DNA of 64,000 nucleotides. It comes from an uncultured Melioribacter sp. (GTDB taxonomy: Bacteria > Bacteroidota > Ignavibacteria > Kapaibacteriales > Kapaibacteriaceae). Made by a program: the position numbers and the translations under genes. The notes under the pieces were generated by a model. The model saw only the letters and a list, made by a program, of their open reading frames with translations. It searched no databases and was not told the origin of the DNA. Positions 12,931-18,081 of the stretch are shown one piece after another. How positions within the stretch are numbered: position 1 is the first letter of the stretch; each line of letters begins with the position of its first letter. The stretch lies in contig CAYMTW010000003.1 in the NCBI GenBank assembly GCA_964393485.1, forward strand, positions 13,773 to 77,772. Reading direction: 5' to 3'.

Positions 12931-15291
12931 TTAGAAACGATAGCGGGCACCAGCCACAAGGCCAAACGTCTCCAGCGTCCAGGGTGTCTCAGTGGCCAGG
13001 TCTCCGAACCAACGATTGTAGCGTGCTTCGGCAGACACGGAGACACTGTAACTCACCGGATACACAAATCCCACAGAGCCATAGGCAGATAGGGCGGTGC
13101 TGCTCAGAGACGGCAAGGTAGTTACGCTACCGGTGCGAGTGGTGCTGCCATCGGGGAACGCGTACGGGGATGGACGCATAATGATCCGTTCGCTGACGAT
13201 ACTGTTAGACAGCAGCATCGAGAGCTGAATTCCAGTACCAAGGTACATGTATTTCCGTGGAGAATACTCCAGACCAAGCGACGCATTCAGGTACGGCAAC
13301 GAAAGGCGAATACGCTCACCTTCCTGATAGGTCACAAAGGTCCGTGACGCTGTGTCAAGCACCGTGAATGACGTTGTATCGGGGGCCAGAAGGACACCGC
13401 TGATCGATGTGAAAGACAATCCGCCGACGAGCGTCAACGCGCTCCCCGCCCGATATCCCACCGTTGCACTGAGTCCAAGATTGGTGCCCTGTGCATCGCT
13501 ATTGAAAGCTCTCTGGCTGTTGATGACGGCAAACGTTGTGTTGATCCGGTGAAACGCACTGCCGCTGTTCAGGAACAATCCAGCATGCCAGGAACCACCG
13601 GCACGGCATTCTTGGGTGGCCCCTTGAGACAAATTGTACACGTACTTCGACGTGGTATTGTCATACAGGTGGCAGATCGTAAACACACTCGAATTGCCTT
13701 CAGCATCGACAGCCTTGAGGACCAGTTTGGAAACATCCGATCCTGACTGACGTTTCACTTTGATCAGGACCTGGGGAGCCCCCTCATCGATGTACGGGAT
13801 GGTGGCCTCGAGACCAAAGGCCTGAACGATACTTACAGAGCGTAGTCCCTTGTCCGTGACACGGTCATCACGCACGATGACCTGGTACTCACCCTTGACG
13901 TAGCGATCATCCGCCTCAGGGGGCAGCGAGTCCACCACAGTCTTCGCATCGTAGAAGGACTGGCCTGCCATGTTACCGTAGGCATCGAAAGCCGCTTTTA
14001 AGAATCCGAAGCCGTATGAATAGAGACCGAATGGTACGTTACCCTTAATCACGTGTGTACCAAACGGCACCTGTACCTGACCGATGGCGTAGCGGCTTTC
14101 ACCGAAGAGACGGAACAGTGTAGTGTCGAGGGGGCGTCCGTTGAGCCTGATATCACGAAGACTTTCCCTTGGAGCAATGACGTTCACATAGTGATGCCAA
14201 TCGCCGTTGATCGGTGTGGCAAAACGGTACTCTGTGCGAAACTGCTGCGTTGGTGTTACCAGGATCATCATCGGGTCACCAACACTGTCACCGTTCTTAA
14301 AACCCTGTGCGAACTGCGCCACCATGATCGGCTTATTGGCCGTGATCTGGGTGTTCTTCATAGCGTTAAGATTCTCGTAGTACTCGCCCGCCTTGAGGAT
14401 GGCGATGAGCTTGGAATCTTCAAACACCTTGGTGCTGTCTGACGAGGCGATCACACGATAGGTATAACGGGAGCGCTCTTTGAGCATGCCCAGATAGTAG
14501 TGCTTGCCCCACGTTGCAACAGGGGGCATTTGTTCGATAAGATGATTGCAGGCCTCAACCTTTGGTGGGATGTAGGCGCAGGCATGACCACTGAAGACTG
14601 AGATCTTCTTGTTCGAGCTGATCGACGTCCCCGTCAGGTCGCAGTTTCCGACGACCTCCCACTTGGCAACGATCGAATAGACATCACCGCGTGCGAGTCG
14701 CACTTTGAATGGGACCTTGGCCGGACGTCCTGTAGAAGTTATTGCACTTGGTACGATCGTGACTTCGGTGCCGTCTTCCGTGGCAACAATTGAGATGCCG
14801 GAGAGCATCTCGGGTGACTGCTGGATCTTCGTGTAACAGACTGCACGGTACTCCGTTCCGAGGATGTTTACCGGCAGACCGAGGTAGGTGTCAGTCGTCT
14901 GAAACCTACTGCTCAATCCATACACTCCGACAGGCTGGTCGGAAGTAATATGCACGGCAAGACGTTCGATGCTTTCCTGAGCACTGACCTGTGCCATGGC
15001 GGGAATCGAAACGTTAACCACGGTGTTGGCCTTGATGCTCACCGTGTTGTCGAACTGAATGCCTTCAACCTCAATGCGGACGTTTGCATCATAGCTGCTT
15101 GTGATGAACAGCTGAAGCCGCAGTCCTCCCTGGCGTCCGGTCTGGTCAGTAATGCCCGCCTCCCGGAAGTTCTTCATGAAGCACAGCCAGAACTCCTTGC
15201 CTTCAGAGCTTGTCTTCTCAACTTCGGTTTGCGCCAGAGCTGCGGTCAGCGTCAGGATCGCAAAGAGCAATGTCAGCAGGGGGCGCTTCAT
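12931..15291 (-). CDS. 786-aa IgGFc-binding-type passenger fused to a C-terminal outer-membrane beta-barrel
   Basis: Signal peptide MKRPLLTLLFAILTLTAALAQ. Residues ~30-470 carry GKEFWLCF, CDLTGTSISSNKKISVFSGHACAYIP, CNHLIEQMPPVATWGK, GDPMMILVTPTQQF and FGLYSYGFG. The last ~220 aa are amphipathic strands ending TFGLVAGARYRF (terminal aromatic). ATGA overlap with the upstream gene. Confidence 0.7.
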   Translation of the reverse strand: MKRPLLTLLFAILTLTAALAQTEVEKTSSEGKEFWLCFMKNFREAGITDQTGRQGGLRLQLFITSSYDANVRIEVEGIQFDNTVSIKANTVVNVSIPAMAQVSAQESIERLAVHITSDQPVGVYGLSSRFQTTDTYLGLPVNILGTEYRAVCYTKIQQSPEMLSGISIVATEDGTEVTIVPSAITSTGRPAKVPFKVRLARGDVYSIVAKWEVVGNCDLTGTSISSNKKISVFSGHACAYIPPKVEACNHLIEQMPPVATWGKHYYLGMLKERSRYTYRVIASSDSTKVFEDSKLIAILKAGEYYENLNAMKNTQITANKPIMVAQFAQGFKNGDSVGDPMMILVTPTQQFRTEYRFATPINGDWHHYVNVIAPRESLRDIRLNGRPLDTTLFRLFGESRYAIGQVQVPFGTHVIKGNVPFGLYSYGFGFLKAAFDAYGNMAGQSFYDAKTVVDSLPPEADDRYVKGEYQVIVRDDRVTDKGLRSVSIVQAFGLEATIPYIDEGAPQVLIKVKRQSGSDVSKLVLKAVDAEGNSSVFTICHLYDNTTSKYVYNLSQGATQECRAGGSWHAGLFLNSGSAFHRINTTFAVINSQRAFNSDAQGTNLGLSATVGYRAGSALTLVGGLSFTSISGVLLAPDTTSFTVLDTASRTFVTYQEGERIRLSLPYLNASLGLEYSPRKYMYLGTGIQLSMLLSNSIVSERIIMRPSPYAFPDGSTTRTGSVTTLPSLSSTALSAYGSVGFVYPVSYSVSVSAEARYNRWFGDLATETPWTLETFGLVAGARYRF

Positions 15292-16113: not shown

Positions 16114-18081
16114 TCAGAGTTCTTGAATGACAATAACGTCGTAGCCTTTGGATTTTTCACCGACCACGACGAGGGTAAAGTTGTTGCCAAGTGTTGCCAG
16201 ACGCACTGGCAGGGTGTACATCTTCTCCCTCGATTCGGCATTGAAAAAGTAGTATGTACCGCGTCGGTCTTGCGTTGTTACCATTGGTTCCGAGATCTCG
16301 CCCATGGGCAGATTCCGGGCCAGGGCCTCGGAGGTCTCTTCGACAGCAATGGAGTCCACGGATACCGTCAGGCGAGCAACATCTCGTGTGGCATTGACCA
16401 CTCGCCGGATGGAACGTCCGGCGGCCGGAAGCAGAGGAAGCGTGCGGTATTGAAGGACGGTGGGCGTGTTGTTCGGCAGGCCATAGACCACCAGCGTCCG
16501 ATCAGCGTTGCGCAACTGCAGCTGGCCCGACAGTCCGTCAATCGCATAGTCGTTATCCGACTGCTCAAGGCACGTCGTCAGCGTGCTGCCGTAGTTCAGA
16601 CGACCGGCAGTTATGGCCGAGCCTAATCGCACCGGGACGGCTTCACGGCCTGGCGCACCGTGAACAAATGTCAGCAAAGCAGCATCGGTAATGAGATCAG
16701 CCGGACGTCCGGCAGACTCCTGTTCGACAACGGCTATGCGCAATTCGCCGAGCTTATCGTGCAGGATCAGATCGTATGACCGGTCCGGCTGGACGTTGAG
16801 CGTCGATATACGCAGCAACACGGTTGGCGTTGTCTCGGTGGTTATCGTCAGTGGAACCTGACCCGGTTCAACGGCTATTGCCCCGGAGACGCCACGCCTA
16901 CCGAGCTTCTGCGCCAGTGTGACAGCTGGTTGAACGCCACTGAGAGATGTTGATGACGAACGCGTACTCGTCGAAACCCGCACGTTCGCTGTCGATGCCG
17001 AGGCATGAATGACGCGGATGACGGCTTTGCCACTGGAACCAAGCGGACGCTGGATCATTGGTGTGACAATAGCCTGTCCGCTGGAGCCGGAGTCTACAAC
17101 GATCACACTGAATAGACTCCGTACCACGAGAGAGGCGCTATCGGCCAGACGTGCTCCCGAAGCGAATCGTACTTCGATCCTGTCGGGCCTCTGCTGTTCG
17201 CACGTCGTCACCGCAACGCGGTCGCCAATGCGACGTTCCGAGAGCCCCTTAGCCAAGGTCGTTCCAAGATCGGGCATATCGACGTCAATGTTGTCGGAAC
17301 TCAGGTTCACCACACGCACGTCCGCCGTCCGACTGGAAACACGTGAGAAGGGGCGTTGTGCACCGGACGAAAGGTCCGATTCTTCAATGAAGAGCAACTC
17401 GGGAACTGCTCCAGATTCAGCTTCGTGAATCACCAGGGAGTAGGTGCCTCGTTCACGCAGTGAGGTCTCGAAGGTGCCGAGGATCGTGGCCTGAGAATTA
17501 CGGTATTCCACCAGAGAAAAGACGGTATTGCCGGGGAAGATCTCTCGGAATTGCGAAGTCTGACGGAAGGCCGTCGGTAGATTGAGTACAGGAGCACCAC
17601 TGGGGCATCCGAGCCGGAGCTCATAGCTTCGAGATGGATCGGCATGCATGTTCACAATGCGCACTTGGGCGTAGCCAAGTGCAGACCCGGGGGTATTGGC
17701 ATTGGAAATCAGGACGGTGTCAAAGCGTCCAGGATTGGCCGGACCTGAGACCGCGTAAAGGTTGTAGGAAGTATTCGGGATGAACGGCACGCGACGGGGC
17801 GAGCGAAACTCCTGCTCCTGTCCACGAACGATCTCGATGAGCGTCGAGTCACCGGGCGACTGTACTGTATCGCTGAACCGGAACATCGGAACATCCGCCG
17901 ACGCAAAGCCTTCTTCCATGACCAGACGGCGCTGCTGGGCATCAGGAACGAGGTTGAACAGACGCATGGTAATGCGACGACGGCCGGGCACGGGATTGAC
18001 GATGCTGTCGTCTTCCTGCGCGCATCCGGACAGTAGTCCGGCTGCCACAATGACGGCACCGATGAGCCTCAAAGAAGTCAT
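16114..18081 (-). CDS. 655-aa lipoprotein made of DUF4397-like repeats
   Basis: Lipobox MTSLRLIGAVIVAAGLLSG|C. Six ~100-aa repeats each open with R/K-hydrophobic-hydrophobic-N/H (MRLFNLVPD, VRIVNMHAD, VRVVNLSSD, IRVIHASAS, LTFVHGAPG, RRVVNATRD). Confidence 0.55.
   Translation of the reverse strand: MTSLRLIGAVIVAAGLLSGCAQEDDSIVNPVPGRRRITMRLFNLVPDAQQRRLVMEEGFASADVPMFRFSDTVQSPGDSTLIEIVRGQEQEFRSPRRVPFIPNTSYNLYAVSGPANPGRFDTVLISNANTPGSALGYAQVRIVNMHADPSRSYELRLGCPSGAPVLNLPTAFRQTSQFREIFPGNTVFSLVEYRNSQATILGTFETSLRERGTYSLVIHEAESGAVPELLFIEESDLSSGAQRPFSRVSSRTADVRVVNLSSDNIDVDMPDLGTTLAKGLSERRIGDRVAVTTCEQQRPDRIEVRFASGARLADSASLVVRSLFSVIVVDSGSSGQAIVTPMIQRPLGSSGKAVIRVIHASASTANVRVSTSTRSSSTSLSGVQPAVTLAQKLGRRGVSGAIAVEPGQVPLTITTETTPTVLLRISTLNVQPDRSYDLILHDKLGELRIAVVEQESAGRPADLITDAALLTFVHGAPGREAVPVRLGSAITAGRLNYGSTLTTCLEQSDNDYAIDGLSGQLQLRNADRTLVVYGLPNNTPTVLQYRTLPLLPAAGRSIRRVVNATRDVARLTVSVDSIAVEETSEALARNLPMGEISEPMVTTQDRRGTYYFFNAESREKMYTLPVRLATLGNNFTLVVVGEKSKGYDVIVIQEL

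Follow-up and report, generated by a model that had tools for sequence, protein, structure and literature searches.

What holds a group of envelope genes together when each of its products carries a different targeting device? This question is raised by three co-directional minus-strand open reading frames (ORFs), labelled g1, g2 and g3, in a 64,000-nucleotide (nt) stretch of DNA (the window, G+C ~56%) from an uncultured Melioribacter sp. of the Kapaibacteriaceae. They encode a lipoprotein with DUF4397 repeats (g1), a small cargo protein of the type IX secretion system (T9SS; g2) and a protein in which the domain known as FCGBP_N or IgGFc_binding is joined to an outer-membrane beta-barrel (g3). 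An earlier note on this DNA had described them as a three-gene operon encoding a multi-component surface complex. The reading tentatively favoured here, which we regard as possible rather than probable, is that g2 and g3 constitute a two-gene, translationally coupled, trans-outer-membrane module conserved across the Kapaibacteriia (Candidatus Kapabacteria). The closest relatives of the proteins are without exception from metagenome-assembled genomes labelled as belonging to this class (Bacteroidota/Ignavibacteria-Chlorobi group).

The layout given in the earlier note is borne out by the sequence, including the ATGA at 15288..15291 shared by g2 and g3, in which the g3 start codon (ATG, 15291-15289) overlaps the g2 stop codon (TGA, 15290-15288). 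The persistence of this arrangement was examined in 80 loci from species-representative genomes and seven further loci from contig look-ups, in which ORFs were called and searched with family hidden Markov models and neighbouring genes were clustered; presence counts for g1 and the downstream CcmB-family gene refer to 85 Kapaibacteriia loci. In 79 of 82 loci the gene immediately upstream of g3 is g2-like. The exceptions are two loci at contig ends and L066, where g2 is present, partly N-masked and with the same 4-nt overlap, so that the pair is found in 80 of 80 informative loci. The junction could be analysed in 66 cases and consists of a 4-nt overlap in 39, a 1-nt overlap in nine and a gap of 0-39 nt in 12, with the remaining six containing an extra barrel-less FCGBP_N gene (446-485 amino acids, aa) between g2 and g3. 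The pairing holds down to 17% identity in g2 and in the most divergent representatives of the family (P0199 and P0164).

No other neighbour is retained in this way. The block MarR-prfA-g1-g2-g3-ccmB is conserved throughout the subclade that carries g1, and g1 itself is present in 38 of the 85 loci, all from this subclade, in which g3 identity is at least 47%; four loci (L070, L072, L078 and L083) have prfA directly adjoining g2 with no g1 between them. The CcmB-family gene is found in 53 loci and is the next gene downstream of g3 in about 48; among these are distant loci that lack g1 and differ in all their other neighbours. In several clades it is displaced by ~7 kb or absent. The CcmB-family gene is therefore more widely linked to g3 than g1 is, and g1 is not a fixed third component but an accessory that one subclade has acquired. 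Only g2-g3 is invariant across the 85 loci, and the two are genuinely a co-inherited, translationally coupled pair. Co-occurrence in related genomes, which had been suggested as a check on the three-gene proposal, thus holds for g2 and g3 and only partly for g1.

Some further genes recur beside the pair. The barrel-less FCGBP_N paralogues of one clade (L002:6642-7982, L004:6531-7928 and L048:6419-7804) are 45% identical to the N-terminal half of g3, and in that clade a gene combining OMP_b-brl_2 and OmpA domains diverges upstream and a MoxR-like AAA gene lies downstream. In 11 loci without g1 (for example L077:5773-7035, and also L066:390-1652), the gene immediately before g2 on its strand encodes a conserved 420-aa secreted protein ('cluster 19'). 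This protein has no match in Pfam or NCBIfam, and a similarly placed 423-aa gene in L087 may be a further member.

The g2 product combines a T9SS targeting signal with a cohesin-like domain. Its C-terminal domain (CTD) scores 26.8 bits against the type A sorting domain model TIGR04183 (cut-off 23) and 19.3 bits against Pfam Por_Secre_tail (PF18962), which is under the cut-off of 27. With a CTD above the TIGR04183 cut-off and a hydrophobic N-terminus taken as a Sec signal, g2 has the features of a type A T9SS cargo. The 44 aligned members of the g2 family have a signal peptide followed by a ~135-aa domain and then a CTD in which the YPNPF motif is conserved. The beta-sandwich of ~130 aa, which the earlier note had left as an anonymous domain, is cohesin-like. 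The family profile matches more than ten cohesins in the PDB (E 2e-4 to 3e-2), in the best cases over the whole domain, with 6kg8, 2ccl, 1aoh, 1ohz and 1anu the best of these (E 2e-4 to 7e-4), and it also matches the solved T9SS CTD 8glj after the cohesin-matching region. An AlphaFold2 (AF2) model of g2, based on a shallow alignment, as only 21 family members were retrieved, reached a predicted local distance difference test (pLDDT) score of 83, and Foldseek placed the cohesin+FN3 module 2w1n at the top of its matches (E 1.6e-8), with the single cohesin 6kgc at a template modelling (TM) score of 0.58.

This likeness in profile and predicted fold to the cohesins of cellulosomal scaffoldins and of non-cellulosomal modules is accompanied by several differences. 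The single g2 sequence has no match to Pfam Cohesin at E <= 0.1, dockerin-type calcium loops (D-x-[DN]-x-[DN]-G) are lacking in g1, g2 and g3, the three proteins scanned, and the cohesin-like domain is fused to a CTD in a didermic bacterium. A literature search combining cohesin, dockerin and T9SS returned nothing resembling the g2-g3 pair.

The g3 product carries the FCGBP_N domain, which is found widely, in bacteria and as far afield as the human mucus protein FCGBP, and for which we know of no structure or function. The AF2 model of g3 (101 homologues, mean pLDDT 86) consists of a signal peptide, an all-beta region (residues ~31-445), a seven-stranded immunoglobulin (Ig)-like sandwich (~459-556) and a barrel (568-785). 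The match to Pfam IgGFc_binding (PF17517) covers the full model (positions 1-297) with 252.7 bits against a cut-off of 25.6 (E 6e-75), and the domain occupies the N-terminus of the mature protein, as in members of the FCGBP_N family. In the 101-sequence alignment this domain contains dozens of invariant polar residues, such as H236, C238, C248, N249, E253, Q254, D339 and H413. The Ig-like domain has the motif DR-x-x-D-x-G, in which D476, R477, D480 and G482 are invariant and R474 and D475 nearly so, and C540 and C562 are likewise invariant. The g3 profile matched no PDB sequence at E <= 1, Foldseek of the model against the PDB returned barrels only, with no fold relative for the FCGBP_N part, and no functional studies were found in a literature search for PF17517 or IgGFc_binding.

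Within FCGBP_N lies the motif D-x-x-G-D-P-M-M (residues 335-347, ~14251..14289), of which D335, D339, P340 and M341 are invariant and G338 and M342 are present in at least 90% of sequences; it recurs as G-D-P-L-M-M in the CTD-bearing paralogue described below. The GDPH site of the VWD domains in FCGBP and mucins is an autocatalytic Asp-Pro cleavage site, and the G-D-P-M-M of g3 holds an Asp-Pro bond like that of GDPH. Among viral models, the sole match of the size of the N-terminal domain was Q6XLX4 (FirrV-1-C4), an uncharacterised protein of the brown-alga phaeovirus Feldmannia irregularis virus a, aligned over 517 columns (E 1.5e-9). FCGBP_N-like folds may thus occur in giant viruses as well.

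The usual bacterial architecture of FCGBP_N is seen in the window itself, in the paralogue encoded at 2483..5503, which matches Pfam IgGFc_binding (E 7.7e-61), scores 23.2 bits against Por_Secre_tail and shares 27% identity with g3 across ~600 aa. The Ig-like domain type of g3 also occurs as repeats in large T9SS-CTD proteins (P0196, P0207, P0221 and P0214). Bacterial FCGBP_N surface proteins of Bacteroidota and Myxococcota have been surveyed, with PKD, CHU_C and SprB among the architectures named (Lang et al. 2016, PMC4948705). The g3 protein resembles these proteins, as does the standard CTD paralogue, in having an N-terminal FCGBP_N followed by Ig/PKD-like domains, and differs from them in having an integral barrel in place of the sorting domain, an architecture not listed in that survey. 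Its FCGBP_N domain also differs in being conserved rather than variable, to a degree similar to that of RF1.

The C-terminal part of g3 is a small barrel of the OmpA type. Foldseek of the model against the PDB matched OmpA, OmpX, Ail, OmpW, Pla and OpcA (E 5e-6 to 1e-3), and together with this fold the terminal aromatic residue (YRF) and the profile homology to PF13568 (OMP_b-brl_2) identify g3 as a small outer-membrane protein (OMP) barrel. The family member P0112 carries PF13568; the window g3 sequence by itself has no Pfam barrel match. A profile of the Ig-like domain and barrel, searched against 1.84 billion representatives, recovered the complete module solely at the C-terminus of FCGBP_N proteins, most of them ~780-890 aa long and one of 1133 aa. 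The barrel profile matches N-terminal barrels at residues ~25-250 both of standalone OMPs of 250-280 aa and of 640-730-aa proteins with OMP_b-brl_2 and OmpA domains (E down to 1.6e-20). Since the Ig-like and FCGBP_N domains occur in CTD-bearing proteins and the barrel is homologous to OMP barrels, g3 resembles an FCGBP_N protein of the T9SS type in which an OmpA-type barrel has taken the place of the sorting domain.

Two other identities for g3, as a PorP/SprF homologue or as an autotransporter, were considered and rejected, as no family match was found and the barrel is of the wrong size. Models for PorP/SprF, PorV and PorQ in Pfam and NCBIfam gave no match to g3 at E <= 0.1, and the best structures were barrels of 8-10 strands. 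Pfam Autotransporter gave no match either, and the autotransporter EstA was a weak, partial Foldseek match (TM 0.15-0.18). The order of an N-terminal, passenger-like domain of extracellular type and a C-terminal barrel is shared with type V autotransporters, whereas the g3 barrel is OmpA-like with ~8-10 strands and not of the 12-strand type with a helical linker.

The barrel type bears on where the soluble part of g3 resides. Homologous barrels start right after the signal peptide and are followed by a periplasmic OmpA domain, so both of their ends are periplasmic, and homology to the OmpA type would place FCGBP_N and the Ig-like domain of g3 on the periplasmic side unless some export route exists. 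Long, indel-rich loops (residues 584-599, 638-650, 707-731 and 763-770) alternate with short conserved turns (615-618, 694-696 and 746-749), a pattern in keeping with a ten-stranded barrel whose N-terminal end is periplasmic. The barrel-less FCGBP_N paralogues carry a type I signal peptide alone. The FCGBP_N and Ig-like module is thus judged likely, well short of certain, to be a periplasmic one tethered to the outer membrane. The tethering of a soluble domain to the outer membrane by a homologous barrel is common to g3 and OmpA-family proteins, in which an OMP_b-brl_2 barrel is combined with a periplasmic OmpA domain. The order in g3 is reversed, with the soluble domains before the barrel, and the peptidoglycan-binding OmpA_C is lacking.

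Evolutionary rates, expressed as mean pairwise identity in 28 genomes carrying all five genes (Table 1), separate the parts of the pair. FCGBP_N is nearly as constrained as RF1, unlike what would be expected of an ordinary adhesin tip, while identity declines through the Ig-like domain and the barrel to the putative outer loops of g3. The cohesin-like domain of g2, the least conserved of the regions compared, behaves in its rate like an exposed, diversifying surface protein. Co-evolution was also assessed by a partial Mantel test controlled for RF1 distance. Every pair, including the ccmB control, gave r of 0.53-0.81, and the test was rejected as evidence.

Table 1. Features of the g1-g2-g3 locus and the FCGBP_N paralogue, in window positions, with mean pairwise identity where calculated
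Feature	Position	Strand	Description	Mean pairwise identity
g1	16114..18081	-	655 aa; DUF4397 lipoprotein, ~4-5 beta-sandwich repeats	0.46
g1 signal peptide and lipobox LLSG|C (residues 17-20, Cys20)	18022..18081	-	mature N-terminus C-A-Q-E-D-D-S-I-V	
g2	15288..16064	-	258 aa; signal peptide, cohesin-like domain, T9SS type A CTD	
g2 cohesin-like beta-sandwich (residues ~30-165)	15570..15977	-	profile and fold match; hypervariable	0.30
g2 T9SS type A CTD (residues ~174-258)	15291..15545	-	TIGR04183, YPNPF motif	0.43
g3	12931..15291	-	786 aa; signal peptide, FCGBP_N (IgGFc_binding), Ig-like domain, C-terminal beta-barrel	
g3 FCGBP_N region (residues ~25-450; Pfam core 134-427)	13942..15219	-	PF17517	0.74
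g3 Ig-like sandwich (residues ~452-556)	13624..13938	-	AF2 secondary structure	0.50
g3 C-terminal outer-membrane beta-barrel (residues 568-786, end ...GARYRF)	12934..13590	-	Foldseek and profile	0.43
g3 putative outer loops				0.37
CcmB-family ABC-2-type membrane protein	12253..12921	-	222 aa; 9 nt downstream of g3	0.58
prfA (RF1)	18102..19166	+	divergent from g1; upstream boundary; PCRF/RF-1 in syntenic L001	0.78
FCGBP_N paralogue of g3	2483..5503	-	1006 aa; FCGBP_N, Ig-like repeats, T9SS CTD	

Taken as one module, g2 and g3 would be made in fixed proportion from their overlapping genes and would form an assembly across the outer membrane. The barrel of g3, integral in this membrane, would anchor FCGBP_N and the Ig-like domain on its periplasmic face, and g2 would be exported by the T9SS via its type A CTD. 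The exposed face of the assembly would then consist of the cohesin-like g2 together with the rapidly diverging loops of the g3 barrel. We infer that FCGBP_N may perform a conserved, near-housekeeping task in the envelope, in which it might bind or process some conserved constituent of the periplasm or cell wall, with g1 as a subclade accessory and the CcmB-family permease as an ancestral neighbour.

Several observations weigh against this reading. The FCGBP_N and Ig-like domains are found elsewhere in extracellular T9SS cargo, namely the paralogue in the window, the CTD proteins with Ig-like repeats named above and the proteins of the published survey (PMC4948705), and this company argues for a surface location of the N-terminal part of g3. 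The surface-export-like N-terminus of g1 (C-A-Q-E-D) and the T9SS signal on g2 would also suit a surface model. DSSP assigned nine barrel strands in the AF2 model, one of which spans 29 residues and shifts register at P666/Y667; the count of ten is an interpretation. If g2 is outside and FCGBP_N inside, the barrel would be the sole contact surface between g2 and g3. That contact is itself conjectural, and the partial Mantel test failed to discriminate the pair or to separate this reading from its rivals.

The complex of the earlier note, in which g1, g2 and g3 meet on the cell surface through lipoprotein export, the T9SS and a barrel inserted by the barrel assembly machinery (BAM), with FCGBP_N outside, gains from the fact that all three targeting devices are real. 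As had been stated, each product has its own, with a lipobox in g1, a T9SS CTD recognised by TIGR04183 in g2 and a barrel in g3 supported by the AF2 model, Foldseek and profile. The three genes adjoin in 38 loci, the N-terminus of g1 is like a Bacteroidetes surface-export signal, and FCGBP_N and Ig-like domains are normally extracellular T9SS cargo domains (PMC4948705). This complex is nevertheless rather unlikely. More than half of the loci lack g1, including those with the prfA-g2-g3 arrangement, the barrel type would put the N-terminal domains in the periplasm, g3 has neither an autotransporter-like linker nor a 12-strand barrel, and conservation at the level of RF1 is atypical of an exposed domain. 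What survives of the proposal is the co-inheritance of g2 and g3 (80 of 80); g1 is not fixed (38 of 85), and a location of all parts on the surface is made doubtful by the barrel topology.

Pairs of T9SS cargo and barrel proteins are known, including SprB/SprF and other type B CTD cargo with PorP/SprF-like proteins, PorU-PorV and PorZ-PorQ. The g2-g3 pair is like them in that a CTD-bearing secreted protein is encoded beside an outer-membrane barrel with which it presumably works, with the cargo gene first as in sprB-sprF, and this invariant order of a cargo gene and a coupled barrel gene raises the alternative that g3 is the dedicated outer-membrane partner of g2. The resemblance of g3 to a T9SS cargo with its CTD swapped for a barrel, and the presence beside g2 of barrel-less FCGBP_N paralogues with no export signal of their own, point the same way. 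Against this stand the lack of any similarity of g3 to PorP/SprF, PorV or PorQ in Pfam and NCBIfam, its small OmpA/OMP_b-brl_2-type barrel, which is not a 14-strand FadL-like one, and the CTD of g2, which is type A, not B, and normally needs no dedicated barrel. The known barrel partners also differ from g3, which itself bears a large FCGBP_N and Ig-like module. A dedicated partnership is considered unlikely. In its extreme form, g3 and the barrel-less paralogues would ride the cohesin-like g2 through the T9SS as a pre-formed complex, with g3 remaining tethered by its barrel. Such hitch-hiking is quite improbable, and the literature search gave no documented precedent for it. It is likewise unlikely that there is no complex at all and that g2 and g3, though co-transcribed side by side, function independently and are held together by operon inertia in one class. 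All loci do belong to a single class-level lineage with conserved long-range synteny, and the partial Mantel test yielded no evidence of interaction; however, the pair endures where all other neighbours have changed, and the stop/start overlap is retained in most lineages despite g2 identities as low as 17%. A module tied instead to the CcmB-family permease, with the Cys/His-rich FCGBP_N as periplasmic partner, for example in the handling of haem or cofactors or in a trans-envelope path of ABC type, would accord with the invariant Cys and His residues of FCGBP_N and with the position of the permease gene directly downstream of g3 across the deepest splits of the family. It is very improbable, since there is no CXXCH motif and no ccmA, ccmC, ccmE, ccmF or ABC ATPase gene beside the operon or in related loci, and since the permease gene is displaced or absent in several clades.

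The g2-g3 module is assembled from known parts and restricted to one uncultured class, and no paper was found on a fusion of FCGBP_N to a barrel or on its pairing with a cohesin-like T9SS protein. With an FCGBP_N domain conserved nearly to the level of RF1, fused to a barrel and locked to a hypervariable partner, the pair offers a compact and tractable system for probing the role of FCGBP_N. A trans-outer-membrane assembly or a T9SS adaptor, if either were true, would represent a new coupling of T9SS cargo to the outer membrane, and hitch-hiking would be the first adaptor-mediated T9SS export as well as a new mode of anchoring T9SS cargo. If neither assembly nor adaptor holds, the pair would be a class-specific envelope module, mainly for specialists of the Bacteroidota cell envelope.

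The accessory g1 encodes a lipoprotein in which Pfam DUF4397 (PF14344) matches four stretches (E 1.3e-23, 84.2 bits, gathering cut-off 30.6). Its LLSG|C agrees with the lipobox pattern [LVI][ASTVI][GAS]C, and L-x-[GS]-C is retained in orthologues. The mature start C-A-[S/Q/E]-E-D is kept in essentially all orthologues, giving acidic residues at +4 and +5 after the Cys. The lipoprotein export signal of Bacteroidetes consists of a polar residue or Lys followed by at least two acidic residues at about +3 to +6, and has been validated in Capnocytophaga, Bacteroides and Flavobacterium only, not in Kapaibacteriia (Lauber et al. 2016, PMC5080379). The resemblance of the g1 N-terminus to this signal hints at surface exposure. 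DUF4397 is an Ig/Fn3-like sandwich that, according to a passing remark in the literature, AlgF also contains; a search of g1 against PDB sequences gave no match, and a literature search on DUF4397 found no functional study.

The downstream neighbour of g3 belongs to the CcmB family (62.6 bits against Pfam CcmB, cut-off 24.9) and falls outside the CcmB haem exporters proper, with 23.8 bits against the NCBIfam ccmB equivalog TIGR01190, far under the cut-off of 156. Neither ccmA, ccmC, ccmE and ccmF nor an ABC ATPase gene was seen next to it among the annotated ORFs of the window; an ATPase of the ABC-F type (34414..36096) is encoded 20 kb away. This permease is probably an ancestral neighbour co-transcribed with g3. 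Its gene shares 4 nt at the 3' end with a convergent gene for phytoene desaturase (10643..12256).

The start of g2 within its longest ORF (15288..16241) is debatable. The ATG at 16064 (MPRRSFF...) is plausible and gives the g1-g2 gap of 49 nt reported earlier, and the in-frame ATG at 16085 (MRYICGR...), which is the start in the public protein P0121 (265 aa, 100% identical to g2), gives 28 nt, so that the earlier figure holds for one of two candidate starts. The four genes g1, g2, g3 and ccmB are on one strand with spacings of 49 (or 28), -4 and 9 nt, and the apparent operon probably has four genes. The operon of the earlier note was correct in strand and close spacing and left out the CcmB-family gene. 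A scan for terminators and promoters gave counts at or below chance and, as it did not include Bacteroidota-type promoters, is uninformative. Upstream, the start codons of g1 and prfA (TTG, 18102) diverge across just 20 nt (18082..18101), so that either each promoter must be located within the adjacent gene's coding sequence or the transcripts are nearly leaderless.

Elsewhere in the window, a 4-nt overlap joins the start of the CTD-bearing FCGBP_N paralogue to the stop of a gene for a calcineurin-like phosphoesterase (5500..6372, minus strand), and an S41 (CtpA-like) peptidase gene (789..2450, minus strand) comes after the paralogue. In many related loci a fragment of the paralogue gene is seen again ~7.4 kb downstream of g3. 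Three consecutive large ORFs lie on the minus strand at 54464..56671 (735 aa), 56643..61679 (1678 aa) and 61682..63751 (689 aa); the first and last of these, the two scanned, had no match in Pfam. Matches to the T9SS CTD at or near the Pfam cut-off were found in an SBBP beta-propeller protein (21751..23832, minus strand), an MbnP-domain protein (46457..47722, plus strand) and a beta-lactamase-fold protein (50751..52010, plus strand). With several proteins of the window carrying T9SS CTDs, the organism evidently uses type IX secretion, and the pattern is consistent with heavy use of the system in this genome. Two more large products look secreted, one of 1264 aa with LamG and PNGase F C-terminal domains (37142..40936, minus strand) and the other of 999 aa with a reprolysin-like M12B metalloprotease domain and SprB/Ig-like repeats (43654..46653, minus strand).

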